Shown here: positions 9,147-56,015 of the stretch, one piece after another
Layout of the letters: each line of letters opens with the position of its first letter
Numbering within the stretch: position 1 is the first letter of the stretch
From: Candidatus Limnocylindria bacterium
GTDB taxonomy: Bacteria > Chloroflexota > Limnocylindria > P2-11E
Assembly: GCA_038227105.1 (NCBI GenBank)
Contig: JBBRQB010000005.1
Location: 1-61,705, forward strand
Direction: 5' to 3'
Length of the DNA stretch: 61,705 nucleotides
Notes under the pieces: model-generated
Database searches by the model: none
Told to the model about the DNA's origin: nothing
The model's input: only the letters and a program-made list of their open reading frames with translations
Translations under genes and position numbers: made by a program

Positions 9147-11411
9147 CTAGCGCTTCTTCTGGGCGTCCTCGGTCGCTCGCATGAGCCGCCAGACGCGTTC
9201 CGGCGTTGCCGGCAGCTCGTGCGGGAAGATCCCGATCGCACGCCCGATCGCGGACGCGACGGCGCCGCCGATCGTGTTGCCCGCTCCCTCGCCGGCTCCC
9301 TTCGCGCCATACGGTCCGGAACCGTCACGCCGCTGCGCGAGGATGAGCTCGACCTCTTTGGGGATGTCGCTGAACCGGGGCACGCGGTAGTCGACGATGT
9401 TCGAGTTCACGAGCTGCTCGCCCTCGTATACAAGCTCTTCATGAAGAGCGGCACCGAGGCCCATCATCGAGGCACCGGCATCCTGGCCATGCACGAGCGC
9501 CGGATTGATGGCGAAGCCGACATCGCCGATCGTCGTGAGCTTCTCGATCGTGACGACACCGGTCTCCCGGTCGATCGTGAGGCTCACGCCGCTGCAGCCG
9601 ATCTCCCAGAACGGCGGCATCATCGCGAAGCCATCGGCCTTCCGGACCGCTCCGTGTCCGAGCACCTCCCCGCCGGCGCCGAACCACCGCTCGATGACCT
9701 CGCCGTAGCTGAGGTCCTGTTGTTCGACACGCACGCCGGCCAGACTGTCCTCGACCGCGGCGAGCGGCACCGCGAACACCTGTGCCGCGAGCTCGCGCAC
9801 CCGCAAGCGAGCGTCCTTGCAGGCTTCCTGGATCGCGCGGCCTGTCACCGTCGTCGTCCGGCTCGCGCCGGTCGTGCGCTCGTAGGTCACGACCCCGGTG
9901 TCGCCGCTGACGATCGAGACCGTGTCGAGCGGGATCCCGAGATCTTCGGCAACGATCTGGCTGAGGACGGTCCGGGAGCCCTGACCGAGCTCGGTGGATC
10001 CGGTGAACAGCGTCACCGAGCTGTCGGCGTGGATCCGGACCGCCGCGGTGGACGTCGGATATGCGCCCGCATCGGACGCGGATACGCCGAGACCCACGGA
10101 TCCGGGTCCGGTCCCCGGCCAGCCGAGGGACCCCGACAGGCAGCGCAGGTCGTCCTTCAGATCCGCGTCGAGGCCGCGCTTCCCCGGCAGGAGCTGCTCG
10201 CCCGGCCCGACGAGGTTCTTGAGCCGGAGCTCGACCGCGTCGATGCCCAGCTTGTGGGCAGCCTCGTCCATTTGGAGCTCGCCTGCGATGTTCCCCACGG
10301 GAGCGCCGAAGCCCCGAAGCGAGCTCGCAGGCACAGTGTTGGTGAAGGTCGACGTCGCGCGCACACGAAGCGCTGGGATCTTGTACGGACCGAAGCAGCG
10401 GTTTGCGGTCTTCTGGTTCACGAGCGGGCTGTTGTCGGTGTACGCGCCCGAATTCATGATGATCTCGAAGTCGCGCGCAAGCAGCATCCCGTCCTTCGTG
10501 AACGCGGAACGCGCCTTGATCAGCGCCGAGTCCGAGCGCGTCGTGAGCATTGCCTCCTCGACGCTGCAGTCCAGCTTGGCAGGCCGGCCGGTGAAGTACG
10601 TCGCCATCGCGGTCATGCCTTCGACCTTGGTGTACGACTTCGTTCCGTAGCCTCCACCGACGTACGGCGCGATCACGCGGACACGAGCGAGCGCGAGCCC
10701 GAACATGCGAGCCAGGTCGCGGCGCACCATGTACACGTGCTGCGCGCTCGAATACACGACGAGGTCGCCCTGGTCGAAGAACGCAAGCGCGTTGTACGGC
10801 TCCATGGCGTAGCCGTAGAGCATCGGGTAGCGATACTCACCTTCGACGACGACCGGGGCGGTCTTGAACGCGGCGTCGACGTCGCCCCACTCGAACTCGG
10901 CGACCGAGCAGACGTTGCCGGCGAGCCCGGCCTCACCGCCGTCCATGCCCTCGTCGCCGACGCGCTCGCCGCGCGCTTCGTGCAGCACTGGAGCTCCGGG
11001 CGCGAGCGCTTCGACCGCGTCGGTCACGGACGGCAGCTCCTCGTAATCGACCTCAACGAGGTCCGCGGCCTCGGCCGCCTCGCGACGTGATTCCGCGACC
11101 ACGAGCGCGACGGGCTCCCCATGGAATCGGACCTTGCCGATGGCGAGCACCGGATGGTCGAGGACCACATGACCGTAGTAAGGGGTCAGGCCCGCTGCCA
11201 GGAGGTCTGCGCCGGTGATCACCCGGAGCACGCCGGGCGCCGCGGCCGCCGCTGATGTCTCGATGCCGCGGATGTTCGCGTGTGCCCGCGACGACCGCAC
11301 GACGATGACGTGCGCCATGCCGGGCACCGAGAGATCGATGGCGTAACGTGCCGCACCGGTGACCTTCGCGATACCGTCGGTCCGCGGTGCGGACGTCCCC
11401 GCGACGCGCAT
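9147..11411 (-). CDS. Xanthine dehydrogenase-family molybdopterin-binding large subunit
   Basis: DGIAKVTGAARY, VGGGYGTK, SLRGFG, ELGQG, GAKGAGEG; ATG 11411 overlaps the small-subunit stop. Confidence 0.93.
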   Translation of the reverse strand: MRVAGTSAPRTDGIAKVTGAARYAIDLSVPGMAHVIVVRSSRAHANIRGIETSAAAAAPGVLRVITGADLLAAGLTPYYGHVVLDHPVLAIGKVRFHGEPVALVVAESRREAAEAADLVEVDYEELPSVTDAVEALAPGAPVLHEARGERVGDEGMDGGEAGLAGNVCSVAEFEWGDVDAAFKTAPVVVEGEYRYPMLYGYAMEPYNALAFFDQGDLVVYSSAQHVYMVRRDLARMFGLALARVRVIAPYVGGGYGTKSYTKVEGMTAMATYFTGRPAKLDCSVEEAMLTTRSDSALIKARSAFTKDGMLLARDFEIIMNSGAYTDNSPLVNQKTANRCFGPYKIPALRVRATSTFTNTVPASSLRGFGAPVGNIAGELQMDEAAHKLGIDAVELRLKNLVGPGEQLLPGKRGLDADLKDDLRCLSGSLGWPGTGPGSVGLGVSASDAGAYPTSTAAVRIHADSSVTLFTGSTELGQGSRTVLSQIVAEDLGIPLDTVSIVSGDTGVVTYERTTGASRTTTVTGRAIQEACKDARLRVRELAAQVFAVPLAAVEDSLAGVRVEQQDLSYGEVIERWFGAGGEVLGHGAVRKADGFAMMPPFWEIGCSGVSLTIDRETGVVTIEKLTTIGDVGFAINPALVHGQDAGASMMGLGAALHEELVYEGEQLVNSNIVDYRVPRFSDIPKEVELILAQRRDGSGPYGAKGAGEGAGNTIGGAVASAIGRAIGIFPHELPATPERVWRLMRATEDAQKKR

Positions 11412-11914
11412 CAACGCGCCCCGCGCCCGGCGCTCGGCGCGGGGAGGACGCGGCTGGGATCCGACACGTCGAGCACCGCTTCGACGATCGTGCCGTAGCC
11501 GGTGCACCGGCAAATGTTGCCTTCCATCCAGTGCTTGACAGTGGCGGCATCGGGGTGCGGACGCTCGTCGAGCAGGGCCTTCGCGGCCATGATCATCCCC
11601 GGGGTGCAGTAGCCGCACTGGAACGCGAAGCGATCGATGAACGCCTGCTGTATCGGATGCAGCTGGTTGCCATCTGCAAGACCCTCGATGGTATCGACCG
11701 TGCGGCCCTCTGCTTCGATCGCGAGCGTGGTGCACGAGCTGACCGGGCGACCGTCGAGCAGCACCGTGCAGGCGCCGCAGACCTGTGTGTCGCAGCTGAG
11801 CTTCGTGCCGACGAGCCCGAGCCCACGCACGAGCTCGATGAGCAGCACCTGATCCTCGACCTCGAGCGTGCGCTCGACGCCGTTGAGGGTGAGACCGATC
11901 TCCCGCCGCGCCAC
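11411..11914 (-). CDS. 2x[2Fe-2S] small subunit (CoxS-like)
   Basis: CDTQVCGACTV, FQCGYCTPG, NICRCTGY. Confidence 0.95.
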   Translation of the reverse strand: MARREIGLTLNGVERTLEVEDQVLLIELVRGLGLVGTKLSCDTQVCGACTVLLDGRPVSSCTTLAIEAEGRTVDTIEGLADGNQLHPIQQAFIDRFAFQCGYCTPGMIMAAKALLDERPHPDAATVKHWMEGNICRCTGYGTIVEAVLDVSDPSRVLPAPSAGRGAR

Positions 11915-11916
11915 GG

Positions 11917-12774
11917 TCAGGCCGCCCCGGCCATGAGTTCGCCCAGCGCGCGCTTCACGAAGACACCGACGATGTGCCGTTTGTACTCGGCAGTGCCGGC
12001 GAGATCGTCACTGGGATCCACGGCTGCGCGCGCGGCCTCGGCGAGCGCATCTGCCGTGCCTGGATCGCGCGCGTCGGCGCCCGAGAGCTGCCCGGTCGGG
12101 ACCGCACGGGGCACCTCGTCGACCGCGCCGATGACGAGCGCGGGCGCGCCGATGAATTTCCCGTCGCGGATGGTCGCGACCGCAGCGACTCCGAGGCTCG
12201 GCCGCTCGAGGACCTGGAACTTCACGTAGGCCATCCGCACGTCGCGCACCGGGATAGGGATCTCGATCGCGACGATGATCTCGTCCGGGCCGAGCGCGGT
12301 CTGGTACATGCCGGTGAGCAGCTCGCTCACGAGAAGGGTCCGGGTCCCGCCCGGACCTTCAAGGACGACGTGCGCGCCGAGGGCGACGAGGAGCGCCGGA
12401 GGGTCCGCATGCGGCTCCGCGAACGCGAGGTTGCCGGCGAGCGTTCCGGCGGCACGGACCCGGATATTCGCCACGTGCGCCTCGAGCTTCGCGAAGACAG
12501 GGAGGGCCTTGGCGATGGCGGGGTCGCGCTCGAGATCCCAGTGGGTAACGGTCGCGCCGATCCGGACGGCCTCGTCCGTAACGGTGACCCCCCGGAGCGC
12601 GCCGATGGGCTTGATGTCGATCAGGTGCGGCCAGCGGGCGACGCCCAGCTTCATGGCGAGGAGGAGCTCGGTCCCGCCGGCATAGACGGCAGCGTCCTCA
12701 CCGTGCTGCTGTCGGAGCGCCACGGCCTCCGCCACGGAAGCCACCCGATGGACATCGAAACGCCGCAAGACCAA
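11917..12774 (-). CDS. FAD-binding medium subunit (CoxM-like)
   Basis: AGGTELL, RAAGTLAGN, PHAD motifs; adjacent to S and L subunits. Confidence 0.92.
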   Translation of the reverse strand: MVLRRFDVHRVASVAEAVALRQQHGEDAAVYAGGTELLLAMKLGVARWPHLIDIKPIGALRGVTVTDEAVRIGATVTHWDLERDPAIAKALPVFAKLEAHVANIRVRAAGTLAGNLAFAEPHADPPALLVALGAHVVLEGPGGTRTLLVSELLTGMYQTALGPDEIIVAIEIPIPVRDVRMAYVKFQVLERPSLGVAAVATIRDGKFIGAPALVIGAVDEVPRAVPTGQLSGADARDPGTADALAEAARAAVDPSDDLAGTAEYKRHIVGVFVKRALGELMAGAA

Positions 12775-12806
12775 TTTTCAGGCCCCTTCGTCAGTGCTGC
12801 CGGTCC

Positions 12807-12825
12807 ACTGTATCCGATATACAGT
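12807..12825. promoter_or_regulatory. Palindromic operator ACTGTAT-N5-ATACAGT
   Basis: Perfect 7-bp arms in the intergenic gap upstream of the FAD subunit; core GTAT-N5-ATAC recurs at 31638 and 32951. Confidence 0.6.
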
Positions 12826-12829
12826 CGCC

Positions 12830-13309
12830 TTAGACGTGACCAGAGCCGATGGCTTCCGCGGCGCCCAGCTCCCGCCCGAGGTTCGAGAAGAACTCGTCGA
12901 GGACCTTGTCCCCCTTCTTCCGGATGGGGCCCGAGCCGAGCGTCGCGACCCGGCCGGTGATCTCGAAGCGGCCGGCCGCGGTCAGGAACGTGCCGCCGTC
13001 ACGGGGCTCGATGGCGAGCTCGATCGTCGCGGAGATGCGCGAACCGATCTGGCGATCCTCGCCGGCGGCGGCAACGTGCATCGTGCGGGCGTCGGCGTCG
13101 GCGTCGACCTTCACGTCGAGATCGGCGCGCATCGCGAACGGGCCGAGACGATCCTCAAGCATTGCCGAGTAGCGGCGCGGCGGATCCACATCCTTCACGT
13201 CTCGAACGACCGAGAGCCACGACGCGACCCGGCGCACGTCCCCCAACGCGTCCCATACCGCGGTCGGCGTCGCGGACAGCTGGATCGTCTTGGCGAAATC
13301 CTGGAACAC
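12830..13309 (-). CDS. CoxG/SRPBCC family protein
   Basis: GTG 13309 with GGAGGAG RBS; VWDALGD...RLGPF...GRVATLGSGPI CoxG-like pattern; next to Mo hydroxylase genes. Confidence 0.8.
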   Translation of the reverse strand: MFQDFAKTIQLSATPTAVWDALGDVRRVASWLSVVRDVKDVDPPRRYSAMLEDRLGPFAMRADLDVKVDADADARTMHVAAAGEDRQIGSRISATIELAIEPRDGGTFLTAAGRFEITGRVATLGSGPIRKKGDKVLDEFFSNLGRELGAAEAIGSGHV

Positions 13310-13356
13310 GTTTCTCCTCCACGCGAAGACATCGTCAGTAAAACACGAGGTGAGAG

Positions 13357-14466
13357 ATGAGCGACGCATCCGCGGCAGCACAGGGCACTGAGCAGCAGCG
13401 ACCGGCGACGTGGGGCCGCGGGGCGTATGAGCAGTTCATCGAGACCGAGGGGATCCCGATCCACACGGGCGTCGCAGTCGAGGACCTCCGCACCGCGAAG
13501 GTGGCCCCGTGGGCCCGCCTCGACGCGAAGGGCGCCTACATCCGGCTCCTCGGCGCCGAAGACACGGACAACGGCTACCTCCTCGAGCTCGACCCCGGCA
13601 AGTCGAGCGCGCCGGAGAAGCATCTGTTCGAGGAGTACTTCTTCGTCCTGACGGGTCGCGGCACGTGCGAGGTCTGGAACGAGGGCGAAGCGCCGCGCAC
13701 GTTCGAATGGCAGGAAGGCAGCCTCTTCTCGGTGCCGCTCAACACGCTGCACCGTCTGCACAACGGCTCGGGCTCGCTGCCCGCCCGCCTGCTCGCAGTG
13801 ACAACGATGCCGATCATGATGAATCTCGTGCACAACACCGAGTTCATCTTCGGTGGTGCGGACTATCTCTTCCGCGACCGCTACGACGGGCGCAAGGAGT
13901 ACTTCGACGGCGCCGGCACGCTCTACACCGGCCGGGTCTGGGAGACGAACTTCGTCGCCGACATCCGCCGGTTCCAGCTTCGTGACTGGCACGAGCGCGG
14001 AGCGGGCAGCAAGAACATCCGCTTCGAATTCGCGAACAACACGATGGTCTCCCACGTGTCCGAGTTCCCGGTCGGCACCTATAAGAAGGGTCACCGCCAC
14101 GGGCCGGGGTACCACGTCGTCATGCTGAATGGCACGGGCTACTCGCTGATGTGGCCGGACGGCGCCGCTGAGATGACCGAGGTCAACTGGAAGGTCGGCT
14201 CGCTGTTCGTGCCGCCGGGTCTCTGGTGGCACCAGCACTTCGTGACCGGCAACGAGCCGGCGCGGTACCTCGCTATCCGCTGGGGCGGCAACAAGTGGAA
14301 GCTGGCCCAGTACCTCGACAACCAGGGCGTCGACAAGGACGTCTCGCAGGGTGGCAACCAGATCGAGTACGAAGACCAGGACCCGAAGATCCATCGCCTG
14401 TACCTCGAGCGCTGCGCCGCCAACGGGGTGCCGGTGAAGATGGACGCCTTCAAGGTCCGCGTTTAG
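13357..14466 (+). CDS. Bicupin metalloprotein 1
   Basis: Two cupin repeats: KHLFEE...LHRLHN and HRHGPG...WWHQH; GAGG RBS. Confidence 0.85.
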   Translation: MSDASAAAQGTEQQRPATWGRGAYEQFIETEGIPIHTGVAVEDLRTAKVAPWARLDAKGAYIRLLGAEDTDNGYLLELDPGKSSAPEKHLFEEYFFVLTGRGTCEVWNEGEAPRTFEWQEGSLFSVPLNTLHRLHNGSGSLPARLLAVTTMPIMMNLVHNTEFIFGGADYLFRDRYDGRKEYFDGAGTLYTGRVWETNFVADIRRFQLRDWHERGAGSKNIRFEFANNTMVSHVSEFPVGTYKKGHRHGPGYHVVMLNGTGYSLMWPDGAAEMTEVNWKVGSLFVPPGLWWHQHFVTGNEPARYLAIRWGGNKWKLAQYLDNQGVDKDVSQGGNQIEYEDQDPKIHRLYLERCAANGVPVKMDAFKVRV

Positions 14467-14533
14467 GCACGACCGGCACCTGACGCACGCGCACCGGGAT
14501 CACACACACGACGCCGGTGGCCACGAGGGGAAC

Positions 14534-15946
14534 GTGGCCACCGAGCGTCTTCGTCTGCGCACGGTGGGCATCGACATCGGCACGACGACCTCGCACCTGA
14601 TCTTCTCGGAGATCGTGCTCGAGCGGCAGGGCATCCTGCTCTCCAGCGCGTACGGCGTGGTCGAGCGGAACATCATCCACCGGTCCGACGTCGCGCTCAC
14701 GCCCTATGCGGCCGGCCGTCGCATCGACACCGCCGCGCTGGCTGCGTTCATCGAACGCTCGTACCGCGAGGCGGGCTGGCGGCCCGAACAGGTCGACACG
14801 GGCGCGGTCATCACGACCGGCGAGGCCGCCCGCCAGGAGAATGCCGCCGCGATCGTTGCGCTCTTCAGCGGCGAGGCCGGAAAGTTCGTGTGCGCCACCG
14901 CGGGTCATCACCTCGAGAGCCTCCTCGCCGCGCACGGCTCGGGCGCGGTGCGGCGGTCGCGCGAGGCCGCTACTCCCCTCGTCCTGAGCATCGACATCGG
15001 AGGCGGCACCACCAAGCTCGCGGTCTGCCGGGATGGGCGGGTCGAGGAGACCGCGGCGATCGACGTCGGCGCGCGGCTCTTCGCCTGGGACGCTGTAGGC
15101 ACGATCGTGACCGCGACCCGCGCCGGAGCGCGCGTCGCCTTGGAGGCGGGCGTGCGCATCGCCCTCGGCGACGCGGCCGACCCGCAGGCGCTCCAGGCCG
15201 TGGCCGACCAGATCGCGGACCAGGCGTTGCGCGTCGCGGCGGGCACGCCATTCGACGACGCGGGGATCTGGCTCACCGCGCCGCTCGTGGCGCAGGGCCC
15301 GTTCCCGGTCCTCATGTTCTCCGGTGGCGTTGGCGAATACGTCAACGGCTGGCAGGACCGCGAGTACGGTGACCTCGGGCTCCTCGTCGGTCGGGCGATC
15401 GTGCGACGGACGGCGGCGTTCTCGGTGCTACGGCCCGTCGAGTCCATCCGCGCCACCTGCATCGGCGCCTCCCAGTACACGGTCCAAGTGAGCGGCGACA
15501 CGCTGTTCCTCTCCGATCCGGGCTTGCTGCCGCTGCGCGACCTCGCGGCCGTGGCCGTGCGGCCGGAGCAGGCCGACGCGAGCGCGATCGCTGCCGAGAT
15601 CCGCCGCGGGATCACCCGCCTCGATCGTGAGGGCGGATCGTTCGCGCTCGCGGTGCGCTGGCGGCACGGCTCCCGGTACCCGATGCTCCGTGCGCTCTGC
15701 GACGGCATCGTCGCCGGTACGCAGGGACGGATCGCGGCCGGCGGTCCGCTCGTGATCGTGCTCGATGCGGACGTAGCCGGGATCGTCGGCCAGATCCTCG
15801 TGAGCGAGCTTGGGGTCAGCTCGCCGATCGTCTGCGTGGATCAGATCGCGCTGTCGGACCTCGACTTCATCGACATCGGCACGGTCGTGCCCGAGCACGC
15901 CGTCGTGCCGGTCGTCGTGAAGAGCCTCGTCTTCTCCGAGCGTTAG
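14534..15946 (+). CDS. eutA: EutA-family (ethanolamine ammonia-lyase reactivase-like) ASKHA ATPase
   Basis: VGIDIGTTTSHLIFS, TGEAARQENA, FVCATAGHHLESLLAAHGSGA, IDIGGGT, FSGGV, IRATCIGAS. Confidence 0.85.
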   Translation: MATERLRLRTVGIDIGTTTSHLIFSEIVLERQGILLSSAYGVVERNIIHRSDVALTPYAAGRRIDTAALAAFIERSYREAGWRPEQVDTGAVITTGEAARQENAAAIVALFSGEAGKFVCATAGHHLESLLAAHGSGAVRRSREAATPLVLSIDIGGGTTKLAVCRDGRVEETAAIDVGARLFAWDAVGTIVTATRAGARVALEAGVRIALGDAADPQALQAVADQIADQALRVAAGTPFDDAGIWLTAPLVAQGPFPVLMFSGGVGEYVNGWQDREYGDLGLLVGRAIVRRTAAFSVLRPVESIRATCIGASQYTVQVSGDTLFLSDPGLLPLRDLAAVAVRPEQADASAIAAEIRRGITRLDREGGSFALAVRWRHGSRYPMLRALCDGIVAGTQGRIAAGGPLVIVLDADVAGIVGQILVSELGVSSPIVCVDQIALSDLDFIDIGTVVPEHAVVPVVVKSLVFSER

Positions 15947-17274
15947 CTCGTCCCGGCCGCGACCGACGCGGCGATATCGCGATTGAGATGCGCCCCGAGT
16001 GGCACCGAGGCGGGGCGGTCCTGGTTGCAGAGGTCCATCGCGATCCGCGCGTAGACCCGTGCCGCGTCCTGCAGGTCCTTCACCTTGAACGACTTCTTGG
16101 CTGCGTGGCTGGCCGAGCGCGGCGCGTAGCTGATCGCGGGGATGCCGAGCTCGTTGAAGGCGTTCGTGTCGCGCCACATGCTCGTGACCGGCTCCCCCAC
16201 GATCGCCGGCGGCGTCGAAAAGGTCTGATCGTGCGACCGCCGGACGGTCTCGATGAGCCGCTCGGCACCTTTGGCTTCGAACCCGGGCCGGTAGAGGAAG
16301 AGCTCGACCGTTCCGTCGACGCCCGCGGTACGAAGGACCCCACGGAGCTCCTCCCGGATATCGATGGGATTCGCCCCGGGCAGGATGCGGGTGTCGACAT
16401 AGAAGGAGCAGACCTGGGGCGCGCTGGTCAGGCTGAACGGATACCCCGACCGGATGGCGTTGACGCTCGCCTTGGGCACGATCGTGCCGGCGGGGCCGCG
16501 GTACGTATTCCGTTGCTGGTAGCCGTAAGCCCACTCCTCGAACGTCGCGATGACCGCTGCCGCCCTGACGATGGCGTTCGGCGCGTCCGCGAGACCAGTC
16601 GGTCGCGGCAGGTACGGGGTGTAGTAGCGCGGCGTGTCGGTCTGGATCGTGACCTTGAAGTGGGCCTTGCCGGGCTCGACGCCGACGATCCCGAAGCCGG
16701 TCCCCTCTGCGACGATCGCGAAGTCGGCGACGGCGCCGTGGGTCACCATGAAGCGCACGCCGAGGTCCTTCGACAGGTACATGGGGCCTTGCCATTCCTC
16801 GATCGGCTCCCGTGAGATCTCGCCAGCGACGGCGCTCACGATGAGGTCTCCCTTCAGCGGGAATCCGGAATCCTTGATCGCCTTGGCGGCCACGAGGAAC
16901 GCGGCCATCGGCCCCTTGTCGTTCACCACCCCGTCGCCATAGATGTCCTCGCCGTCGACCCAGGCCGAGTGATAGAGCGGGTCGTTCGGATCCTTGGCCG
17001 ACCAGACGGCGTCGCGGCGGAGCGTCGTGTCGAGGTGGGAGTTGTAGATGAGGCTATAGCCGCCGCCCGTCCCGTTGAGCCACGCGGCGACGTTGAACCG
17101 CTCCGGGATCAGCGCGAACTTCTTCGGCGCGAAGCCGTTGCGCTCGAGCCACTCGTACACGAACTGGCCCGCCGGCCCCTCGCTCCCGGTCGGACTATCG
17201 ATGTTGCCGAGAGCCAGCGCGAGGTCGACGACCTCCTGCGGGTCGATGTGGGCAACGACATCGTCGGGGGTCAT
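15943..17274 (-). CDS. M20 family (ArgE/DapE-like) metallo-amidohydrolase
   Basis: DSPTGSE, NSHLDT, YGDGVVNDKG, IVAEGT; ATG 17274 with AAGGAG RBS. Confidence 0.85.
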   Translation of the reverse strand: MTPDDVVAHIDPQEVVDLALALGNIDSPTGSEGPAGQFVYEWLERNGFAPKKFALIPERFNVAAWLNGTGGGYSLIYNSHLDTTLRRDAVWSAKDPNDPLYHSAWVDGEDIYGDGVVNDKGPMAAFLVAAKAIKDSGFPLKGDLIVSAVAGEISREPIEEWQGPMYLSKDLGVRFMVTHGAVADFAIVAEGTGFGIVGVEPGKAHFKVTIQTDTPRYYTPYLPRPTGLADAPNAIVRAAAVIATFEEWAYGYQQRNTYRGPAGTIVPKASVNAIRSGYPFSLTSAPQVCSFYVDTRILPGANPIDIREELRGVLRTAGVDGTVELFLYRPGFEAKGAERLIETVRRSHDQTFSTPPAIVGEPVTSMWRDTNAFNELGIPAISYAPRSASHAAKKSFKVKDLQDAARVYARIAMDLCNQDRPASVPLGAHLNRDIAASVAAGTS

Positions 17275-17291
17275 CTCACTCGCTCCTTGTC

Positions 17292-18509
17292 TCAATTCAA
17301 GTCCACGGTCGGCGGCACGCCGATGCGCGCAATGAGGGACGCGAGCAGCAGCACGATGGCCGCGGTGATGATCGCAGCTTGGGCGCTGATGAGATCCATC
17401 ACCGCAGCGAGCGCGACGGGACCGATGAACGCCCCGAGGTCGGCTGAGAAACGATAGGTCCCGAGGACCTTCGTGCGATCCTGCGGGGGGACGATCTCCG
17501 ACAGCAGCGCGGTCTGGGAGCTCGAGAAGAAGTCCCCGAACCCGATGAGCGCCGCGGCGAGCAGGAATGTCACCAGGTCGTGCGTGAACAGGAAGACCAG
17601 GTCGCCTGCGGCGATCGCCGCGAGCCCAGCGGTGATGATCCGCCGCCGGCCCACACGGTCGCCCAGCATGCCGCCCGGCGTCGCGACCAGCAGGCCGGTG
17701 ATCGACATGAGCGCGATGGCCGTGGCGATCGAGATGCCGCCGAGCCCGAGCGCCGTCGCCGCGTAGAGCGGCAGGATCGTGTTCCGGAAGCCGTGGCGGT
17801 TGATCATGTTGGCGACGACGCCCAGGTTCGTCGCGCCGATCGCGATCACGCGCTCCCGGCCATGAAGAACGCGTGCCTCGCCCAGCGATGCGCGGGGAGC
17901 GGACCCGCTGCGCGGGTGCACCTGCCGCAGCACCGGCAGCAGGATCGCTCCGGCGACCAGGATGAGCGCGAACGTGACGGCGAAGGTCACCCGCCAGCCG
18001 AACAGCACGCCGATGACGCCGCCCACCAGCGGGTACGCGGCGATGCCGACGTTGTTCGCGACGTGGAACAGGCTCATCACCTTGCCGCGATTGCTCGGCG
18101 TCGCAGTTGCGCTGAGGGAGGACAGGACCACCGTCGCAAGGATCCCGACCGCGAAGCCGGATCCCACCCGCGCGACGATCAGCCGCTCGACCGAGGCCGC
18201 GTTGAGCCCGATGAGGCATGACACGAGGGCCAGCACGAGCGCCACCATGCTGATGCGCCGGTGCCCCACCCGGTCGGACACGAAGCCGGCCGGCAGGTCG
18301 ATGATCAGGCGCGCGAGGCCGAACGCTCCGACAATGACGCCGGCCATCGCGATGCTGACCCCGAAGTCCTTCCGGATGTCAGGCAAGAGCGGCGTCATGA
18401 TGTTCGTCGCCGACACGATGAGGAACAGCGCGCCGGCGAGCAGGAAGGACTCCCGCGGGATCGACTCCCGTGCCGCTGCGGCCGGTCCGTCAGCCGCGAC
18501 GGCGGTCAC
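17292..18509 (-). CDS. MFS transporter
   Basis: GFVSDRVGHRR and GMLGDRVGRRR motifs; about 12 TM helices. Confidence 0.9.
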   Translation of the reverse strand: MTAVAADGPAAAARESIPRESFLLAGALFLIVSATNIMTPLLPDIRKDFGVSIAMAGVIVGAFGLARLIIDLPAGFVSDRVGHRRISMVALVLALVSCLIGLNAASVERLIVARVGSGFAVGILATVVLSSLSATATPSNRGKVMSLFHVANNVGIAAYPLVGGVIGVLFGWRVTFAVTFALILVAGAILLPVLRQVHPRSGSAPRASLGEARVLHGRERVIAIGATNLGVVANMINRHGFRNTILPLYAATALGLGGISIATAIALMSITGLLVATPGGMLGDRVGRRRIITAGLAAIAAGDLVFLFTHDLVTFLLAAALIGFGDFFSSSQTALLSEIVPPQDRTKVLGTYRFSADLGAFIGPVALAAVMDLISAQAAIITAAIVLLLASLIARIGVPPTVDLN

Positions 18510-19372
18510 TCGGCGCGCAGCGCCGCGGCGACATCGGCGAGCGTGAGCCGCTCCGGTGCGAGCGCGAGCTCGCGGGTCGAGCTCGCCGCGCGAAGGACGA
18601 GCTTGCGCACCTGGCGCGCGTCAAAGGCCTTGTCAGCGCACGCGCTCGCGATCGCCTGGAGCGCGGCCTCGTCGATGCGGTCGGCGGGCACCAGCTCGGA
18701 GAGGGTGTCGCGGAGGATGCGCGCGATGGCCTTCACGCCGGGCAGTCCGACCTCCTCGACGAGGTCGGCGCGGGAGAGGAACGCAACGTCCACGCCGGCT
18801 GAATGGTTCGTGGTCGCGACGAACGTCACGTTCGGGCAGCTGCGGGACACGTGGTCGACGCCGGCAAGGACCGCGTCGGTGGCGCGATGCACGTCCACCG
18901 GATTCGTCTCGAGCGAAGCTCCGGCCCGACTCACCGCCAGGGACTCGACCTCGTCCAAGAGGACGATCGTCGGGCGGCCCCGGCGCGCGAGATCGGGCAG
19001 CGTCCGCTCGAAGAGCCGAGCAACGCTGCGCTGACTCTCACCGAGCATCTGGCTCGGGAACGAGTGCGGATCGATGTCCACGAAGAGGATCGGATCCCCG
19101 AGCACGCGCGCCGCCTGATCGGCGAGGCCGCCGGCGAGGGTGGTCTTCCCCGTACCCGGCGGGCCCGCGAGCACGACGAGGCCGTGGATCGGCAGCCCGA
19201 CCGCGCTGACCCCGCCGCGGTGCTTGAGCGACAGCAGCAGGTAATTGAGCAGCCGCTCCTTGAGCTCCGGCGCCACGAAGATGCGGTCCCACCGTTCTTG
19301 CCACGCAGGGTCGGGAAGCTCCGTGATCGAGACGATCCCCTCGATCCCCGGTGGGACCTGGACGGCGGGCAT
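18506..19372 (-). CDS. AAA+ ATPase, Pch2/TRIP13-like
   Basis: Walker A GPPGTGKT, Walker B LLDEVESL, sensor 1 ATTN, DVAFLSRAD Arg finger; N-terminal LP...W..I.....K..LL.Y as in Pch2/TRIP13. Confidence 0.85.
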   Translation of the reverse strand: MPAVQVPPGIEGIVSITELPDPAWQERWDRIFVAPELKERLLNYLLLSLKHRGGVSAVGLPIHGLVVLAGPPGTGKTTLAGGLADQAARVLGDPILFVDIDPHSFPSQMLGESQRSVARLFERTLPDLARRGRPTIVLLDEVESLAVSRAGASLETNPVDVHRATDAVLAGVDHVSRSCPNVTFVATTNHSAGVDVAFLSRADLVEEVGLPGVKAIARILRDTLSELVPADRIDEAALQAIASACADKAFDARQVRKLVLRAASSTRELALAPERLTLADVAAALRAE

Positions 19373-19375
19373 GCG

Positions 19376-20422
19376 TTAGGCCCCGGGCCGCCCAGCGAAG
19401 TGCTCGGGCCCGATGAGCCGGGAGAGATCCGGTGCGTCGAGCTCAGGAAGCTCCTCGAACAGGTTCATCGGGTCGAGGAGGATCCGCATCATGTCGTAGA
19501 GCGCGTCGAAGTTGTGCACGCGGATGAGCCGCGCGGTCTTCGTCTTGTCGTCAGTGAAGTGCTGGTGCCAGGCCCAGTGGTCGACCACGATGAGGTCGCC
19601 CTCCTCCCAGGGGAAGCTCACGCCATCGAGCTCGCTGTGGCCCCGTCCGGAGACGACGTAGAGCCAGGCCTCGCCGCCGTGGCGGTGGCGCGACTGGTAG
19701 AGGCCGGGCGCGAGCTCGTGCATGACCGCGGAGAGACCCGCGGTGTGGTACCCGATGGACGTGTCGATGAGGAAGAGGCTGCGGGCACCACGCTTGGTGA
19801 TGAGCCCGCGGACGTCATCGAAGCGCGTGATGAGCCGTGCGCTGTCAGATCCCGCGAACTGCTGCGCGAGGCGCTGGGTGCGCCGGGCGAGCGGATCCGC
19901 CCCGGCGATCGCGGCGACCTGCTTGGGACGCGGTGGCAGCTTCGCGACCGGAGTGTCGCCGCCGTCCTCGAGGAGCGCGACGCCGAACTGCTCGAGCATC
20001 GGTTGCACGCTCCAGGTGTGGAAGACCGCGGTGGTGTCCGAGTCATTGCCATGGCGGTGCCAGGCCCAGCTCGGCAGGTGGATGGTGTCCCAAGGCCGCC
20101 AATCGATGCGCTGGCCGTCGATCTCGGTCCAGCCGGTGCCGGACTCGATGAACTCGATCGCGTCCCACGAGTGGCGGTGCACCGTCGTGGTCGTGTGCGG
20201 CGGGATCTCGTGCAGCGTCGCGTCCAGGTTCTTTGTCGGCTTGTCGCCGTCGTAGCCCGCGTACACGCCGCTTCGCATCCGCCGGCCGGGAACGTCATGC
20301 ATGACGACGTCGCTCCGCTTGATGACCGTCTTGTGGTAGCGCTTCCACTCGTCCAGCAGCGACTCGCGCCGCTTCTTCTGGATCTCGTAGTGGGTCACCT
20401 GGGTGGTCGTCGTCGTCTTCAT
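19376..20422 (-). CDS. Bicupin metalloprotein 2
   Basis: HRHSWD...WHRH and HRHGGE...WHQH. Confidence 0.88.
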   Translation of the reverse strand: MKTTTTTQVTHYEIQKKRRESLLDEWKRYHKTVIKRSDVVMHDVPGRRMRSGVYAGYDGDKPTKNLDATLHEIPPHTTTTVHRHSWDAIEFIESGTGWTEIDGQRIDWRPWDTIHLPSWAWHRHGNDSDTTAVFHTWSVQPMLEQFGVALLEDGGDTPVAKLPPRPKQVAAIAGADPLARRTQRLAQQFAGSDSARLITRFDDVRGLITKRGARSLFLIDTSIGYHTAGLSAVMHELAPGLYQSRHRHGGEAWLYVVSGRGHSELDGVSFPWEEGDLIVVDHWAWHQHFTDDKTKTARLIRVHNFDALYDMMRILLDPMNLFEELPELDAPDLSRLIGPEHFAGRPGA

Positions 20423-20424
20423 GA

Positions 20425-21423
20425 CTAGTGCTTCAGCGCCGGCTCACGGCCGGAGACCCGCGGCAGAACGTCACGCGCGAGCGTCTCGATCTGCTGGAGC
20501 CAGTCCGGGAAGCGCATCCGGAAGTCGAAGACGAGGAGGTCGCAGCCGATATCCTGGTACCGCTGGATGCCGCGGACGATGTCGTCGGGCGTGCCGGCGA
20601 GGATCGATCCGTCGAGCTCCTCGATCTTCGTGAACTCGCCGGATTCGGGCTTGTTCCACCACTTCTGGGCGTTCGCGTTCTTGATGAGGCCTGGCACGTT
20701 CATCCGGTCGGTGGCGGCCTGGTAGGACGTGTCGATGCTCGTCACCGGCACGGCGCCGGTCATGATCATCGGCTTGCCCTGCTTCTCGGCCATCTGTTTG
20801 ATCTTCTTCACCCGCTCCTCGTACGTCGGGAACGTGATGCGGCCGGGGATCCAACCCTCGCAGAAGTCCACCGCAAGCCGCGCGGAGGCCGGCGTCGCAC
20901 CGCCCCACCACACCGGTACCGGGTGCACCGGCTGCGGCTTGAGGTCCACGTCAGCGAAGTTGTAGAGGTCGCTGTGCCATTCGACGGTCTCCCCCGCCCA
21001 GAGCTTTCGCGCGATGAGGACGTGCTCCTTCATCATCGCGGGACGGTCGACCGAGCTCTGCCCGATGACGTCGAACTCGTGCTGGAAGTTGCCGGAGCCG
21101 ATGCCGAGGTCGAACTTCCTGCGGGTCATCCAGGACATCGAGGCGACGCTGTAGGCCATGTGCAGCGGGTTGCGGAACGGGATGATCGTCGCGGCGCCGA
21201 GACCGATCTTCTCCGTCACGCCCGCCAGATAGGTCAGCGCGACGAACGGCTCGATGAACGTGCGGTCGGTCCCCTCCATGCCGTGCGGATGGAACACGAG
21301 GTGATCGCGCACCCACAGGGAGTCGAAGCCGAGGCGGTCCGCGAGCTGCGCACCCTGGATGAGCAGGTCCTGGTCAGCCTCGACACCGAAGTGCGGGATG
21401 AGCAGGCCGAAGCGCGTGGTCAT
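20425..21423 (-). CDS. LLM-class flavin/F420-dependent oxidoreductase
   Basis: GFDSLWVRDH, LGIGSG, PVWWGG; ATG 21423 with GAAGGAG RBS. Confidence 0.88.
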   Translation of the reverse strand: MTTRFGLLIPHFGVEADQDLLIQGAQLADRLGFDSLWVRDHLVFHPHGMEGTDRTFIEPFVALTYLAGVTEKIGLGAATIIPFRNPLHMAYSVASMSWMTRRKFDLGIGSGNFQHEFDVIGQSSVDRPAMMKEHVLIARKLWAGETVEWHSDLYNFADVDLKPQPVHPVPVWWGGATPASARLAVDFCEGWIPGRITFPTYEERVKKIKQMAEKQGKPMIMTGAVPVTSIDTSYQAATDRMNVPGLIKNANAQKWWNKPESGEFTKIEELDGSILAGTPDDIVRGIQRYQDIGCDLLVFDFRMRFPDWLQQIETLARDVLPRVSGREPALKH

Positions 21424-21531
21424 GGCCGGGTCTCCTTCCGTGGGCGGTGTCCGCGTGCCGTGCTCAAGACCGAAGGTCGCGCGCCCGACGTCCCCGGCAT
21501 GTGGCCGGGGACGTCGAGCCAACGAGCGGAG

Positions 21532-22608
21532 CTACTTCGTCGGGATGCTGTACTTCGCGTAGAAGCCGCCGTCGACGAGCTTCTGGAGGAACGACAGGTC
21601 GTAGCACTTCTTGAGATCGACGCCCGCCACGGGCGGGTTCACGCTCGAGAGCACTTCCTTCGGCGCCACGAACGCTTCTTCGGTGAAGATCATCGAGCGC
21701 AGGCCGTAGTCGAGGAAGCCCTTCACGGCGGTCACCGCGTCGGCCGGCTTGAGCTGGGCCGCGTCGGCGAACTTCACGGCGACATCCGCGTTGTTCGTCC
21801 AGAAGTAGTTCTGCGCGCGCACAGTCGCGGCGACGACGTTCAGGACCGTGTTCGGGTTCTTCGCGACGAAGTCGGCGCGCGCCATGAGACCGCTACGGCC
21901 CCACTGGCCACCCTTGGTCACATCGACGATGAGGTTGTTCCCCGCCGCCTTGAGCTTGTCGTCGTTCACCAGCCCGGCCATGATGCAATCGATCGAGCCG
22001 CCGAGGAGCGCCGCGATCCGCGTGCCCTCGCCGCCGACCTCTTTGATCACGACATCCTTGTTCGTGTAGTTCAGGAGCCTGACGGCGATGAGCGCCGAGC
22101 CGTGCGACGTGCCACCGAACGTGCTGATGGCGATCGCCTTGCCCTTGACGTCAGCCGCGGTCTTGATGGTCGACTTGCAGTAGAGACCGTCGGTGTTCAG
22201 GACACTGTTGACCGAAAGGACCTTCAACGGCGTGTCGGTGAGCTGCGACGAGATGGCCGAGGTGACGCCACCGACGAAGAAGTCGAGCTGACCGGCGACG
22301 AGCGCCTGAAGGGCCTTCCCGTCACCCTCGAAGCCGGTCACGGTCACGGAGGTGATGCCGAGCTCCTTGTAATAGCCGAGCGTGTCGGCAAGACGTTCCG
22401 CGTACTGCACGGGCTCCGTCGGCGCGCTAATGCCGATGCGGATCGTGGTCAGCTCGGGCTTGGGCAGCGCGCCCTGCGCCGCTGATGCGCTCGCCGCCGG
22501 GGCGGGCGTTGCGCTGGGGGCGGTCGTGCCGCCGCCGCACGCAGCGGCAACGAGACCGATCGCCGTGATGGCCGCGAGGAACCTAACGAGCTTGAGGTTT
22601 GAGATCAT
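21532..22608 (-). CDS. NitT/TauT ABC substrate-binding lipoprotein
   Basis: Signal peptide with lipobox AAAC, ADVKGK, RIAALLGGSID. Confidence 0.88.
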   Translation of the reverse strand: MISNLKLVRFLAAITAIGLVAAACGGGTTAPSATPAPAASASAAQGALPKPELTTIRIGISAPTEPVQYAERLADTLGYYKELGITSVTVTGFEGDGKALQALVAGQLDFFVGGVTSAISSQLTDTPLKVLSVNSVLNTDGLYCKSTIKTAADVKGKAIAISTFGGTSHGSALIAVRLLNYTNKDVVIKEVGGEGTRIAALLGGSIDCIMAGLVNDDKLKAAGNNLIVDVTKGGQWGRSGLMARADFVAKNPNTVLNVVAATVRAQNYFWTNNADVAVKFADAAQLKPADAVTAVKGFLDYGLRSMIFTEEAFVAPKEVLSSVNPPVAGVDLKKCYDLSFLQKLVDGGFYAKYSIPTK

Positions 22609-22681
22609 CGCTCTACACCCCTTCATCTCGGCCCGGCCCACCGCCGGACGCGCTGAAAATGTAGCCGAGCGAGGCTACATC

Positions 22682-30610: not shown

Positions 30611-31600
30611 CTAGATGGTCGCGGTCGCGAGCTTGTCCTTGTCGACGATCTTGTCGTACCCGCTCCAGAGCGCCTCGTAGAAGAAGCGGACCCCGAACTC
30701 GATGCGCAGGGTGCGCGTGCGGGCATCGGAGCCATTGAAGTGCTCATGCACGGTCTGGCGCGGCGGCACGTGCACGGCGTCGCCGGCCTCCCAGTCGTAC
30801 CGCTTGCCGTCGATCTCCGAATAGCCCTGACCCTCGAGCACATACAGCATCGCCTCGGTGTGCGAATGCCGGTGGCTGCCGGAGTGCGGCGCCTCCTCGA
30901 AGATGTTCGTCATCGAGACGGCCTTCGCTCGGAAGCCGTTCGTCTCGTCACTCGGGCTCTCGCTCCCGCCCATCAGGATCCAGATGCCGGCATGACGGTG
31001 CGCGCTCTTCTGCTCGCCCTTCGGGTGCGCGTGGCCTGAGAGCCGGCGGGCCTTCTCGTCGATCGCGTCCTCCAGGTGGAGGGCGATGCGGCGGCCATCG
31101 ACTCCGAGCTGCGACGCCTCCGCCGGGTACCGCTTTGCGAGCTCGCCGCGGTCGGGGCCTTTGTCTTCGAGCTGCACGAGGCGGCCGAGCTTCACGTCGA
31201 AGTCGAGGTCTTGGGTCACAGCGGAGATGTACGTCGCCGGTTCGCTGCCGGTGTTCACGTGCTGGTGCTCCGCGCGGTACTGGATGTGGAGGGTCGTTCC
31301 CGGCTTCCAGTCGTAACGCGCGCCGTCGATGACGCTGAAGCCCGAGCCCGACGTGATGTGGATCGCCTCTTCGCCGTGCATGTGCTTCCCGGTCCGGGAC
31401 CCCGCCGGGATCTCGGCGGTCAGGAGGGCGGTGCCCTGGGTCGGGAAGCCGCTCGCCTCGCCGATGAGCATGGCCACCCGGAAGTCCTGCGGCGTCTCGA
31501 TCCACGTGAGGTCCCTGCCACGAGCGATGACCGGCGGCGCGACCAGCCGCTCCTCGAGCCGCTTGCTCTCAGCGAGCCAGGCGCGATAGAAGTCGCTCAT
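30611..31600 (-). CDS. Bicupin metalloprotein 3
   Basis: HMHGEE...EHQH and HSHTE...HEH; GGAGG RBS. Confidence 0.85.
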
Positions 31601-31636
31601 TTCATCCTCCGTGCGTCGGTAGGGCCACGGCCCGAT

Positions 31637-31651
31637 GGTATCCCGTATACC
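31637..31651. promoter_or_regulatory. Operator GGTAT-N5-ATACC
   Basis: Palindrome upstream of bicupin 3; same core as 12810 and 32951. Confidence 0.55.
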
Positions 31652-31712
31652 GACGCTCAGAGCGCGGGCGCGCCGAGTAACGCGACTCCGTGATCTCGAG
31701 CTGATCCATCAG

Positions 31713-37060: not shown

Positions 37061-37702
37061 GTGTTCGCGACGGCCGACGAGCTCGCGCGCGCGGCGGCCG
37101 GCGAGATCGCTGCCGCGATCCGCGGGAGCGACGCGCTCCGCTTCGCGCTCACCGGTGGCACGACGCCACGCGCCTGCTACGCGTATCTCGCCGGCCTGCA
37201 GCTCCCCTGGGGCCGCGTCACCATCTTCTTCGGCGACGAGCGCTGCGTGCCGCCATTCGACGCCGACAGCAACTTTGCGATGGCCCAGCAAGCCCTCCTG
37301 CAACACGCGGCGCCGGCATCGGTGCACCGGATCGCCGGCGAGCTCGGACCAAAGGATGCGGCGGCACGGTACGAGCCGCTCGTCGCCGCGGCGCCCCTCG
37401 ACCTCGTGCTCCTGGGTATCGGACCTGACGGGCACACCGCCTCGCTGTTCCCTCACGATCCCGCGCTCTCCGCGACGACCCACGTCGCGCCGGTGTTCGG
37501 TTCACCGAAGCCTCCACCGGAGCGTGTCACCCTCACCCTCCGGACCCTTCGCGAAGCGCGGCGCGTGATCATGCTCGTATCCGGGAAGGACAAGGCCGAC
37601 GCGGTCCGGCGCGCCCTCGCCGGCGAGGGCCCCGCCGGGATGATCCCCGGGGCTGAATGGCTCTTGACCCGCGACGCCGCTCCGGAGAGAGAGGGGTCCT
37701 AG
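37061..37702 (+). CDS. pgl: 6-phosphogluconolactonase
   Basis: LTGGTTP, FGDERCVP, DSNF, GIGPDGHTASLFP. Confidence 0.92.
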   Translation: MFATADELARAAAGEIAAAIRGSDALRFALTGGTTPRACYAYLAGLQLPWGRVTIFFGDERCVPPFDADSNFAMAQQALLQHAAPASVHRIAGELGPKDAAARYEPLVAAAPLDLVLLGIGPDGHTASLFPHDPALSATTHVAPVFGSPKPPPERVTLTLRTLREARRVIMLVSGKDKADAVRRALAGEGPAGMIPGAEWLLTRDAAPEREGS

Positions 37703-38283: not shown

Positions 38284-38287
38284 CGCT

Positions 38288-38530
38288 TCACCGGTCCGTG
38301 CCGGGCGTTGGCGGTGCATCGTCTGGATGAGCAGGCGGTACGCAGGGAGAGTGGCTGCGAGCAGATCGTTCCCCGCCGTGTCCGCGCGACATGGAATTCT
38401 TCGCGACTTCGCACTCCGACTCGAGGCGGTCGCCGCTACTGAGCACGCCGGCGAAGATCGCCTTTTCGATCTGGGACACGATCTCACCCGAAACGCCGGC
38501 CTGCCGGACCGGCGTGAACGCCATTGCCAT
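38288..38530 (-). pseudogene. Internally deleted, frameshifted GntR/FadR regulator
   Basis: MAFTPVRQ...IVSQIEKAIFAGVLSSGDRLESE (wHTH start) followed in other frames by EFHVA and ADTAGNDLL (FCD piece). Confidence 0.6.
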
Positions 38531-38640
38531 GTCCTTGTGCCTCCCTGCGAGCTTGTTTGGCGCAAAGGTATAGCAATCGGACACCCGAACGGGCGCCATT
38601 CGCGACACGCCGCGATCACGTGAGAACGCGTGGAGGGAAC

Positions 38641-55947: not shown

Positions 55948-55969
55948 CAGTGGGTGTCCGTCCAGCTCA

Positions 55970-55983: not shown

Positions 55984-56015
55984 GGCATAGCCTAGACAAT
56001 GACAGAATGCGTTTC

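Follow-up and report, generated by a model that had tools for sequence, protein, structure and literature searches.

What does a EutA-family protein do in a bacterium in which no ethanolamine ammonia-lyase is found? EutA is described in PMC5821096 as the non-catalytic reactivase of that enzyme. The question is raised by a gene pair on a 61,705-nucleotide contig of a Chloroflexota draft genome (hereafter the window, contig C5 of 109 in a 2.39 Mb assembly that is 91.9% complete). The window has a G+C content of 69%, and the organism names attached to its closest homologues indicate 'Candidatus Limnocylindria', Chloroflexota. A sequence-only reading had described a two-gene unit here, a bicupin gene followed by a full-length EutA homologue, and had called the latter an orphan reactivase that either serves a client other than a B12 enzyme (the bicupin, a UbiD-type enzyme or a divergently encoded molybdenum (Mo) enzyme) or acts as a small-molecule kinase. 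Both genes lie where it placed them, at 13357–14466 and 14534–15946, and sequence comparison supports the view that the two are inherited, duplicated and transferred as a pair and co-diverge. We give about an even chance to the proposal that they form an operon for a bicupin metalloprotein and its dedicated EutA-family ATPase, the latter being a client-specific, ATP-driven loader or repairer of the metal centre.

The gene map around the pair combines frames with high third-position G+C (GC3) with Pfam and NCBIfam scans. The elements of the pair are as follows.

13310..13356, no strand: divergent intergenic region of 47 nt, between a coxG-like gene (minus strand) and the bicupin gene
13357..14466, plus strand: bicupin gene, 369 aa (P0002), of an uncharacterised family (Pfam Cupin_2, two-barrel model, GC3 0.91)
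14467..14479, plus strand: spacer of 13 nt from the bicupin stop codon to a conserved CTG (read from the sequence)
14480..14533, plus strand: probable N-terminal extension of the ATPase, 18 in-frame codons with 5 His (conserved CTG)
14534..15946, plus strand: EutA-family ASKHA ATPase as called from GTG, 470 aa (P0001; Pfam EutA PF06277)
14564..14596, plus strand: phosphate-1 motif of the ATPase, residues 11–21, including the clade-specific H21 (alignment)
14987..15016, plus strand: phosphate-2 motif of the ATPase, residues 152–161, including the clade-specific K161 (alignment)
15521..15943, plus strand: C-terminal alternating beta-alpha domain of the ATPase, with the predicted bicupin-contacting loops 379–386, 412–425 and 436–437 (secondary structure and predicted interface)

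A EutA relative and its constant neighbour

The ATPase P0001 matches Pfam EutA (PF06277) over almost the whole profile (E 3.1e-113, 379.6 bits, residues 8–467 on profile positions 3–474 of 475) and is collinear with Escherichia coli EutA (b2451) over its full length, with 34% identity over 475 columns (E 2e-60). Both ASKHA phosphate motifs that the sequence-only reading had pointed out are present (phosphate-1, DIGTTTSH; phosphate-2, DIGGGTTK); an adenosine motif (SGGVGE) can also be read, and all three are invariant in 48 relatives. The structural model, with a predicted local distance difference test (pLDDT) score of 89.1, has an ASKHA core (approximately residues 1–325) followed by a C-terminal Rossmann-like domain (approximately 330–470), and its list of fold matches is filled by ASKHA proteins with Z-scores up to 16.1. 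The diol/glycerol dehydratase reactivases DdrAB/GdrAB (PDB 2d0o; Z 11.2, root-mean-square deviation (r.m.s.d.) 4.5, 238 residues) share with it an ASKHA/Hsp70-like ATPase devoted to the repair of one enzyme, but are two-subunit factors with a cobalamin client, and 2d0o matches no better than many ASKHA proteins (Ppx/GppA, Z 14–16; BcrAD-type activators, about Z 14). A sequence search of the PDB with the ATPase returned no match, and hence no solved EutA-family structure by sequence.

P0001 falls well below the curated NCBIfam equivalog cut-offs: the best model, NF007992, scores 328.4 bits against a cut-off of 598, and three other EutA models score 242.6 (cut-off 769), 240.3 (952) and 193.2 (799). 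A quick maximum-likelihood analysis of 47 proteins places 44 bicupin-linked proteins apart from three EutB-adjacent ones, these three (E. coli and two Chloroflexota) being the only canonical rows; the branch between the two groups has a support of 100 in the Shimodaira–Hasegawa-like approximate likelihood-ratio test (SH-aLRT). By these scores and this separate branch, the bicupin-linked ATPase is, as far as sequence goes, outside EutA proper. Two positions beside the phosphate motifs are invariant in its clade and differ from the canonical proteins, H21 (K or Q in canonical EutA) and K161 (N in 3/3); Q318 is clade-specific as well. E. coli EutA shares the ASKHA motifs as well as the C-terminal domain, in which T, Y and D residues are conserved, and by analogy the bicupin-linked ATPase is presumably also an ATP-driven machine acting on one client enzyme; the two differ in that client, EutBC in the one case and, on our proposal, the bicupin in the other, and in a His-rich N-terminal region that is absent from all three canonical proteins.

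No match to EutB (PF06751) or EutC (PF05985), and none to bacterial microcompartment shell families, was found across the 91.9%-complete genome, which holds one EutA-like gene only. The lack of eutB, eutC and shell genes noted earlier for the window extends to the assembly, on the genome-wide eutBC search proposed at that time. The accompanying statement that there is no B12 enzyme is true of the window and not of the organism: three mutase-family places with adenosylcobalamin-type (methylmalonyl-CoA-mutase-type) genes and four B12-binding-domain matches lie on other contigs. The diol dehydratase family also had no match in this genome, a result that is uninformative because its control likewise matched nowhere.

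A protein search with one genome per species gave 35 loci with 39 near-full-length EutA-like matches, 32 of them with at least 1200 nt of upstream DNA; the other seven, near contig ends, were left uncounted. In 31 of the 32 the first 600 nt upstream contain a bicupin homologue of the same orientation; at the exception, L032, a divergently oriented bicupin lies about 280 nt upstream. Record titles and tree labels assign the bicupin-linked proteins to eight phylum names (Chloroflexota, Acidobacteriota, Actinomycetota, Pseudomonadota, Binatota, Verrucomicrobiota, Thermodesulfobacteriota and Myxococcota).

Within Chloroflexota, an evenly sampled set of 301 genomes contained a EutA-family match in 16, EutB in 10 and a homologue of the bicupin P0002 in 15. 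Just two genomes (G076 and G112) have both EutA and EutB; in these the genes are adjacent, EutA scores 528–536 bits and there is no bicupin. In the remaining 14 with EutA the score does not exceed 430 bits; none of these has EutB and every one has the bicupin, while one further genome has a distant bicupin match only. These 14 genomes are kin (14 genera, several families), so that the counts are descriptive and carry no statistical test. By hand count, a scored bicupin lies within 2.5 kb at no fewer than 20 of 51 non-canonical EutA-like places (the window's own left out), a lower bound, with at most six bicupin candidates scored per genome. 'Orphan' is accordingly the wrong description: across 31 of 32 loci and 14 of 14 EutB-less Chloroflexota genomes the bicupin is the constant partner. 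Of the two outcomes named as refuting the sequence-only reading, a eutBC elsewhere in the genome and homologues with no conserved link to cupin or UbiD genes, neither was borne out: eutBC was not found, and the link to the cupin is conserved. UbiD lies 40 kb away in the window and is unlinked in other loci.

In the databases, thousands of proteins are called 'ethanolamine utilization protein EutA' or 'reactivating factor', and a bicupin homologue (P0241) is called 'ethanolamine ammonia lyase-activating protein', which shows that annotators propagated the association without the function. Because the studied loci and the 14 EutB-less Chloroflexota genomes are without ethanolamine lyase, the name EutA is probably wrong for the bicupin-linked clade. 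In PMC4334477, 'EutA' is the ectoine-utilisation protein.

The arrangement of the pair varies. The order bicupin–ATPase–bicupin occurs at four loci (L026, L028, L029 and L031), and three bicupins precede one ATPase at L021. Fertoeibacter, Nocardioides and Micromonospora have a tandem double cassette: at L022, L023, L024, L027 and L037 the order is bicupin A, ATPase A, bicupin B, ATPase B, common to an alphaproteobacterium (Fertoeibacter) and actinomycetes (Nocardioides, Micromonospora). Since each cassette copy falls in its own deep subclade, the sequences suggest that the whole four-gene cassette has been transferred between phyla. At L017, a metagenome-assembled genome (MAG) labelled Acidiferrales, Acidobacteriota, the genes for CoxG, bicupin (82% identical), ATPase (62%), M20 and a major facilitator superfamily (MFS) transporter stand in the Limnocylindria arrangement, and the locus nests within the Limnocylindria subclade in the tree, pointing to gene transfer or a binning error.

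Co-divergence and a predicted complex

Distance matrices of the ATPase and the bicupin were compared over 36 pairs and correlate with r = 0.953, a value reached by none of 2000 permutations. At the five double-cassette loci the grouping of the paralogues agrees between the two proteins in 10 of 10 comparisons. Shared ancestry inflates these figures, and the agreement among paralogues says no more than that each cassette moves as a whole.

Complex prediction, one of the checks that the sequence-only reading had named, was run on our own alignments (52 bicupin rows, 48 ATPase rows). The interaction prediction score from aligned errors (ipSAE) was 0.75, 0.75 and 0.72 in three runs, against 0.00 for the best of three controls, with at least 92% of contacts in common between runs and a partner pLDDT of at least 78. 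Calibration put 58 of 80 solved complexes and 2 of 110 mismatched pairs at or above this ipSAE mark, counts that are only roughly valid with own alignments. As no EutA-family structure is present in the PDB by sequence, the score is not the memory of a solved complex. The model thus supports binding of the ATPase to the bicupin.

The predicted interface on the ATPase side consists of loops associated with the C-terminal domain (residues 321–323, 379–386, 412–425, 436–437, 454 and 456), and on the bicupin side of stretches of the N-terminal barrel (81–83, 101–105, 115–122 and 135–141) with a few linker residues. Conservation is high on both faces. Within the bicupin stretches, G100, G102, F116, E117 and N136 are each present in 52 of 52 sequences, W118 in 49 and R101 in 46; on the ATPase, T323, D413, G419 and D436 are each found in 48 of 48 and Y382 in 41. 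These five ATPase residues are also identical in all three canonical EutA proteins, and because the predicted contacts are common to canonical EutA, we infer from the model that the C-terminal surface may be the ancestral client-binding face of the family.

The bicupin itself matches Pfam Cupin_2 (E 1.2e-13, residues 75–148) and is modelled as a two-barrel fold with a pLDDT of 92.4. Its N-terminal barrel, approximately residues 35–160, carries the predicted docking surface; ligand-like positions there are partly kept (H89 in 44 of 52 sequences, E93 in 43, H132 in 39). The C-terminal barrel has the invariant residues Y242, K244, H246, H248, H292, Q293 and H294. Given this invariant His cluster and the partial retention of the N-terminal ligand positions, the metal site is likely to lie in the C-terminal barrel, as judged from the alignment.

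The best structural neighbours of the bicupin are the gentisate/salicylate 1,2-dioxygenases 3bu7 (Z 20.9, r.m.s.d. 3.5, 265 residues), 2phd (Z 20.8, 3.4, 258 residues) and 2d40 (Z 19.9, 3.6, 250 residues), which share its bicupin architecture at an identity of only 12–16%; seed globulins and oxalate decarboxylase, at about Z 19, are within about 1–2 Z units of these top matches and effectively tied. P0002 is unlike the dioxygenases in its invariant His cluster in the C-terminal barrel and in the Glu/His/Glu/His-type positions of its N-terminal barrel. It has no match at E 0.001 to the gentisate dioxygenase model TIGR02272, and its sole NCBIfam match is 27 bits to the 5-aminosalicylate dioxygenase model (cut-off 650); no curated Pfam or NCBIfam family claims it beyond the generic Cupin_2. 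A Foldseek search of the PDB returned generic bicupins only (TM about 0.45–0.5), a PDB sequence search returned an auxin-binding protein alone (E 0.0035) and no close solved relative, and a protein atlas search gave only 'cupin domain-containing' clusters.

Possible metal handling and competing explanations

How might such a pair work? In the mechanism that we propose, the C-terminal Rossmann-like domain of the ATPase would dock on the N-terminal cupin barrel through residues invariant on both sides, and the ATPase would act as an ATP-driven conformational machine that opens one specific client for exchange of its bound cofactor, as EutA does on ethanolamine ammonia-lyase. The exchanged cofactor would be the metal ion of the bicupin in place of cobalamin, a His-rich N-terminal tail on the ATPase (from CTG 14480) might hold or hand over the metal, and the pair would act in the breakdown of aromatic or N-heteroaromatic carboxylic acids.

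The putative His-rich tail lies ahead of the called start. The ATPase frame is open upstream of the called GTG back to 14438, and from a CTG at 14480 it reads 18 codons with five His. The region ahead of the called start is His-rich in the ATPase frame at 13 of 13 subclade loci, whatever the frame relative to the bicupin, with in-frame insertions and deletions and with both CAC and CAT codons in use. The CTG is conserved at 12 of the 13, and only nine have GTG as the valine codon where the gene is called to start; the spacer from the bicupin stop to the CTG measures 9–12 nt at the four other loci read. The gene probably starts at CTG 14480, 54 nt upstream of the call, judging from this conservation, giving a protein of 488 aa and a gap of 13 nt in place of 67. 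Such a spacing suits re-initiation by terminating ribosomes, and GTG 14534 may give rise to a second, shorter product.

Automated gene calling misplaces the ATPase start in the window's subclade. Among the query and 121 close database homologues, 54 of 122 are called too short, without the first ATP-binding motif, and 46 start at the valine of the window's called start. P0050, P0057, P0063 and P0070 have an ATG-started His-rich N-terminus, the ATG of P0063 standing at the position of the window's CTG. Across loci L007–L017, L038 and L039 the ATPase seems in many genomes to be without a canonical start codon, and at L017, where neither CTG nor GTG precedes the first ATP-binding motif, the start is unexplained. 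In a wider set of 42 bicupin-linked homologues, the 45 codons ahead of the first ASKHA motif encode three or more His in 33, in many cases behind an ordinary ATG, compared with 1, 1 and 0 His in the canonical EutA proteins. The His-rich region is N-terminal: a C-terminal His-rich tail was found in 0 of 40 open reading frames (ORFs) in the studied loci.

A second link to metal comes from transporters. Eight of the ten relatives longer than 823 aa are a EutA-like domain fused to the permease of an ATP-binding cassette (ABC) importer (Pfam BPD_transp_1). These fusions (P0243–P0249 and P0252) are about 1140–1200 aa long, one of them from a Burkholderiales MAG. In P0243, the only fusion with its sequence read, the linker is an extreme His run, the N-terminus is rich in His and Asp, and the permease is double and most like PhnU2, below the cut-off. 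A bicupin–ATPase fusion was also looked for and is absent from the ten long relatives, which is weak evidence; the long N-terminus of P0250 looks like an over-extended start. On a plasmid of Phyllobacterium zundukense the annotated genes run in the order Rieske dioxygenase, ferredoxin, class II aldolase, cupin, 'EutA', a HoxN/HupN/NixA nickel/cobalt transporter and nikR.

The metallochaperones HypB, UreE/UreG, SlyD and CooJ combine tails rich in His or acidic residues with a core that hydrolyses nucleotides, serve a single metalloenzyme and are occasionally linked to nickel uptake; their folds, those of G3E GTPases or peptidyl-prolyl isomerases, are unlike the ASKHA fold of the bicupin-linked ATPase. 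We know of no ASKHA-type metallochaperone. Literature searches, which covered sources other than subscription journals and supplementary files, found neither such a protein nor a paper on the bicupin–EutA-like ATPase pair. Our fuller proposal is more tentative than the operon reading, and we would place it somewhat short of an even chance: the bicupin-linked clade would be a new class of metal-centre assembly factor on the ASKHA/EutA scaffold, with metal taken from a dedicated ABC importer (whose permease is joined to the ATPase by a poly-His linker in some bacteria), held on His-rich tails and inserted or exchanged upon ATP-driven opening of the bicupin, and EutA, the B12 reactivase, would then represent a specialised offshoot within a wider group of ATPases that exchange cofactors. 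If this is true, a type of chaperone described so far only with cobalamin enzymes as clients also has clients in a large and unstudied cupin metalloenzyme family, which bacteria of soil, sediment and fresh water carry in catabolic islands directed at aromatic and heterocyclic acids. The predicted contact residues being common to true EutA, the model would also be the first structural proposal for client binding by any member of the EutA family. Attempts to express these bicupins in a foreign host may fail if the ATPase is left out.

Several observations weigh against a metal-loading ATPase. The tail requires a non-canonical CTG start in the window, where a GTG with a good ribosome-binding site stands at 14534 and is kept at 9 of 13 subclade loci, so that a tail-less form may be made; and one whole paralogue type (seven sequences, including the neighbour of the nickel genes) has 0–1 His in the corresponding stretch. 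The nickel/cobalt link is one locus, whose ATPase is of this tail-less type, and tblastn with the Phyllobacterium NiCoT and NikR, a single query, gave no match in this genome or the other loci, a search that divergent transporters could escape. The 25 commonest neighbour families (135 ORFs, 21 loci) include no metal transporter. The predicted interface is on the N-terminal barrel and the invariant His cluster in the other, C-terminal one. H21 and K161, invariant, clade-specific and beside the phosphate motifs, could mean altered ATP-site chemistry. Finally, the bicupin and ATPase co-occur strictly (14/14), canonical EutA being missing from 8 of 10 EutB genomes, a pattern that an obligatory subunit would explain no less well than an accessory repair factor.

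That obligatory catalytic subunit is the main rival: bicupin and ATPase would be one two-subunit enzyme, with ATP hydrolysis or phosphoryl transfer at every turnover, much as the ASKHA-type subunits of acetone carboxylase and hydantoinase activate a carbonyl or enol substrate for a metal subunit. Besides the strict pairing and the flanking H21 and K161, it can draw on the tandem cassettes, in which each paralogous bicupin keeps its own ATPase, on co-divergence, on a tight start–stop spacing that suits equal amounts of both proteins, and on the confidently predicted binding. The pair also occurs in genomes labelled Syntrophobacteraceae and Dehalococcoidales, usually anaerobes, which speaks against a simple O2-dependent dioxygenase. 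We nevertheless hold this explanation to be doubtful, though worth serious attention: two or three bicupins share one ATPase at L021, L026, L028, L029 and L031, His-rich tails and permease fusions are unexpected for a catalytic kinase subunit, and nearly all the invariant residues, including those predicted to bind the client, are common to EutA, a non-catalytic reactivase according to PMC5821096. The pairing, the binding prediction and the family evidence would also suit a strict reactivase that handles no metal and frees the bicupin of a tightly held dead-end ligand or of an oxidised or inhibited state. Of the readings considered, this one carries over what is known of EutA's mechanism with the fewest changes. 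Fe(II) ring-cleaving enzymes are prone to suicide inactivation, and Rubisco activase and the XylT ferredoxin offer functional analogies; it leaves unexplained the His-rich tails, the permease fusion linked by poly-His, the nickel-gene neighbour and a partner that is never dispensable in the sampled genomes, and we consider it unlikely.

Two further explanations fare worse. A small-molecule kinase or ATPase that acts independently and has only a transcript in common with the bicupin, the free-standing kinase of the sequence-only reading, finds nothing specific in its favour beyond an ASKHA fold common to many kinases, and the co-divergence (r = 0.95), the confident predicted interface of invariant residues and the full-length EutA architecture, C-terminal domain included, make it very improbable. 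A true cobalamin reactivase whose client is a B12 enzyme from another part of the genome, for instance one of the methylmalonyl-CoA-mutase type, could point to the three mutase-family places and four B12-binding domains, and in a genome 92% complete a missed eutBC is conceivable. Mutases use MeaB-type G-proteins, EutB and EutC were not found in the genome, all 14 Chloroflexota genomes with the clade are without EutB, and the protein scores 328 bits against the cut-off of 598 and falls on the non-EutB side of the 100%-support branch; we find this explanation scarcely credible.

The surrounding genes

The pair is flanked by a divergent operon and a convergent cluster, and the remaining features of the window that bear on it are listed here.

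9147..13309, minus strand: divergent Mo-hydroxylase operon of the xanthine-dehydrogenase family (family scans and synteny)
12830–13309, minus strand: CoxG-like gene (family scan)
11917–12774, minus strand: Mo-hydroxylase FAD subunit (family scan)
11411–11914, minus strand: Mo-hydroxylase small subunit (named by position, size and synteny only, with no family scan)
9147 to about 11414, minus strand: Mo-hydroxylase Mo subunit (family scan)
15943..22641, minus strand: convergent cluster of six genes (family scans)
15943 to about 17292, minus strand: M20 deacylase-like gene of the convergent cluster
17292–18509, minus strand: MFS transporter of the convergent cluster
18506–19372, minus strand: AAA+ ATPase, 288 aa, of the convergent cluster
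19376–20422, minus strand: gentisate-dioxygenase-like bicupin 2 of the convergent cluster
20425–21522, minus strand: F420/luciferase-like monooxygenase (LLM) oxidoreductase of the convergent cluster
21532–22641, minus strand: SsuA-like binding protein (SsuA-type ABC importer) of the convergent cluster
37699–38700: UbiX-like flavoprotein, 22 kb from the pair
55914–57560: UbiD, 40 kb from the pair

In the intergenic region 13310..13356, the coxG side has an in-frame GTG at 13309 with GGAGGAG ahead of it on the minus strand, and the bicupin side has GAGGTGAGAG ahead of ATG 13357 on the plus strand; both divergent promoters presumably sit here. A scan for consensus promoters and terminators gave no site, as expected for a genome of this kind, and is uninformative. 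At the other end, the ATPase and M20 genes converge, with a 4-nt overlap of their stop codons (15943–15946), and no terminator-like hairpin was found at this junction.

The proposal that the EutA homologue serves a client other than a B12-dependent lyase stands for the bicupin, on adjacency, co-occurrence, co-divergence and the complex prediction, and is not supported for the two alternatives named with it. UbiD, together with the UbiX-like flavoprotein, was rejected as a client on distance (22–40 kb) and on the lack of linkage in other loci, and the Mo hydroxylase because its link is mainly within the window's subclade, its synteny being confined to that subclade and a few other Chloroflexota loci. 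Close relatives at L012 (41–1950) and L039 (274–1572) have a second, divergent bicupin–ATPase pair, 42–48% identical, just beyond the Mo-subunit gene; the same spot in the window holds a type-2 isopentenyl diphosphate isomerase gene. In five loci the pair is downstream of an ATP synthase operon, which we take as lineage-specific synteny.

Within 5 kb of the pair (the 135 ORFs at 21 loci mentioned above), the commonest neighbours are nine binding proteins, eight Amidohydro_2 proteins and eight MFS carriers, followed by six extra cupins and four LLM oxidoreductases. The binding proteins are of the SBP_bac_1/6/11 families and weakly PhnS2-like, the same transporter class as the fused permease; the NCBIfam check of this group of nine was made on one representative. 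Other loci have Amidohydro_2 proteins of LigW/LigI/LigJ type, a Rieske LigXa-like oxygenase, a LigB-type dioxygenase, an RraA-like aldolase, alcohol dehydrogenases, and TctABC and MFS carriers; in the window the neighbours are the Mo hydroxylase, the M20 deacylase and a second ring-cleavage-type bicupin. By family name, these neighbours would fit the catabolism of aromatic or N-heteroaromatic carboxylates.

Bicupin 2 (19376–20422) is directly followed on the minus strand by the AAA+ ATPase gene (18506–19372), a second cupin-plus-ATPase pair. This order is kept in nine Limnocylindria-type loci (L007, L009, L010, L011, L013, L014, L016, L038 and L039). At L050, in another family of Chloroflexota, bicupin 2 is 65% and the AAA+ protein 59% identical, followed by LLM and M20 genes, and a third AAA+ homologue, L051, has no bicupin within 1.5 kb. 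A third bicupin gene, with two Cupin_2 stretches, lies at 30611–31708 on the minus strand beside an MFS transporter and two GntR/FCD regulators, with a P450, an LLM oxidoreductase and amidohydrolases nearby, and the window as a whole looks like a catabolic island.

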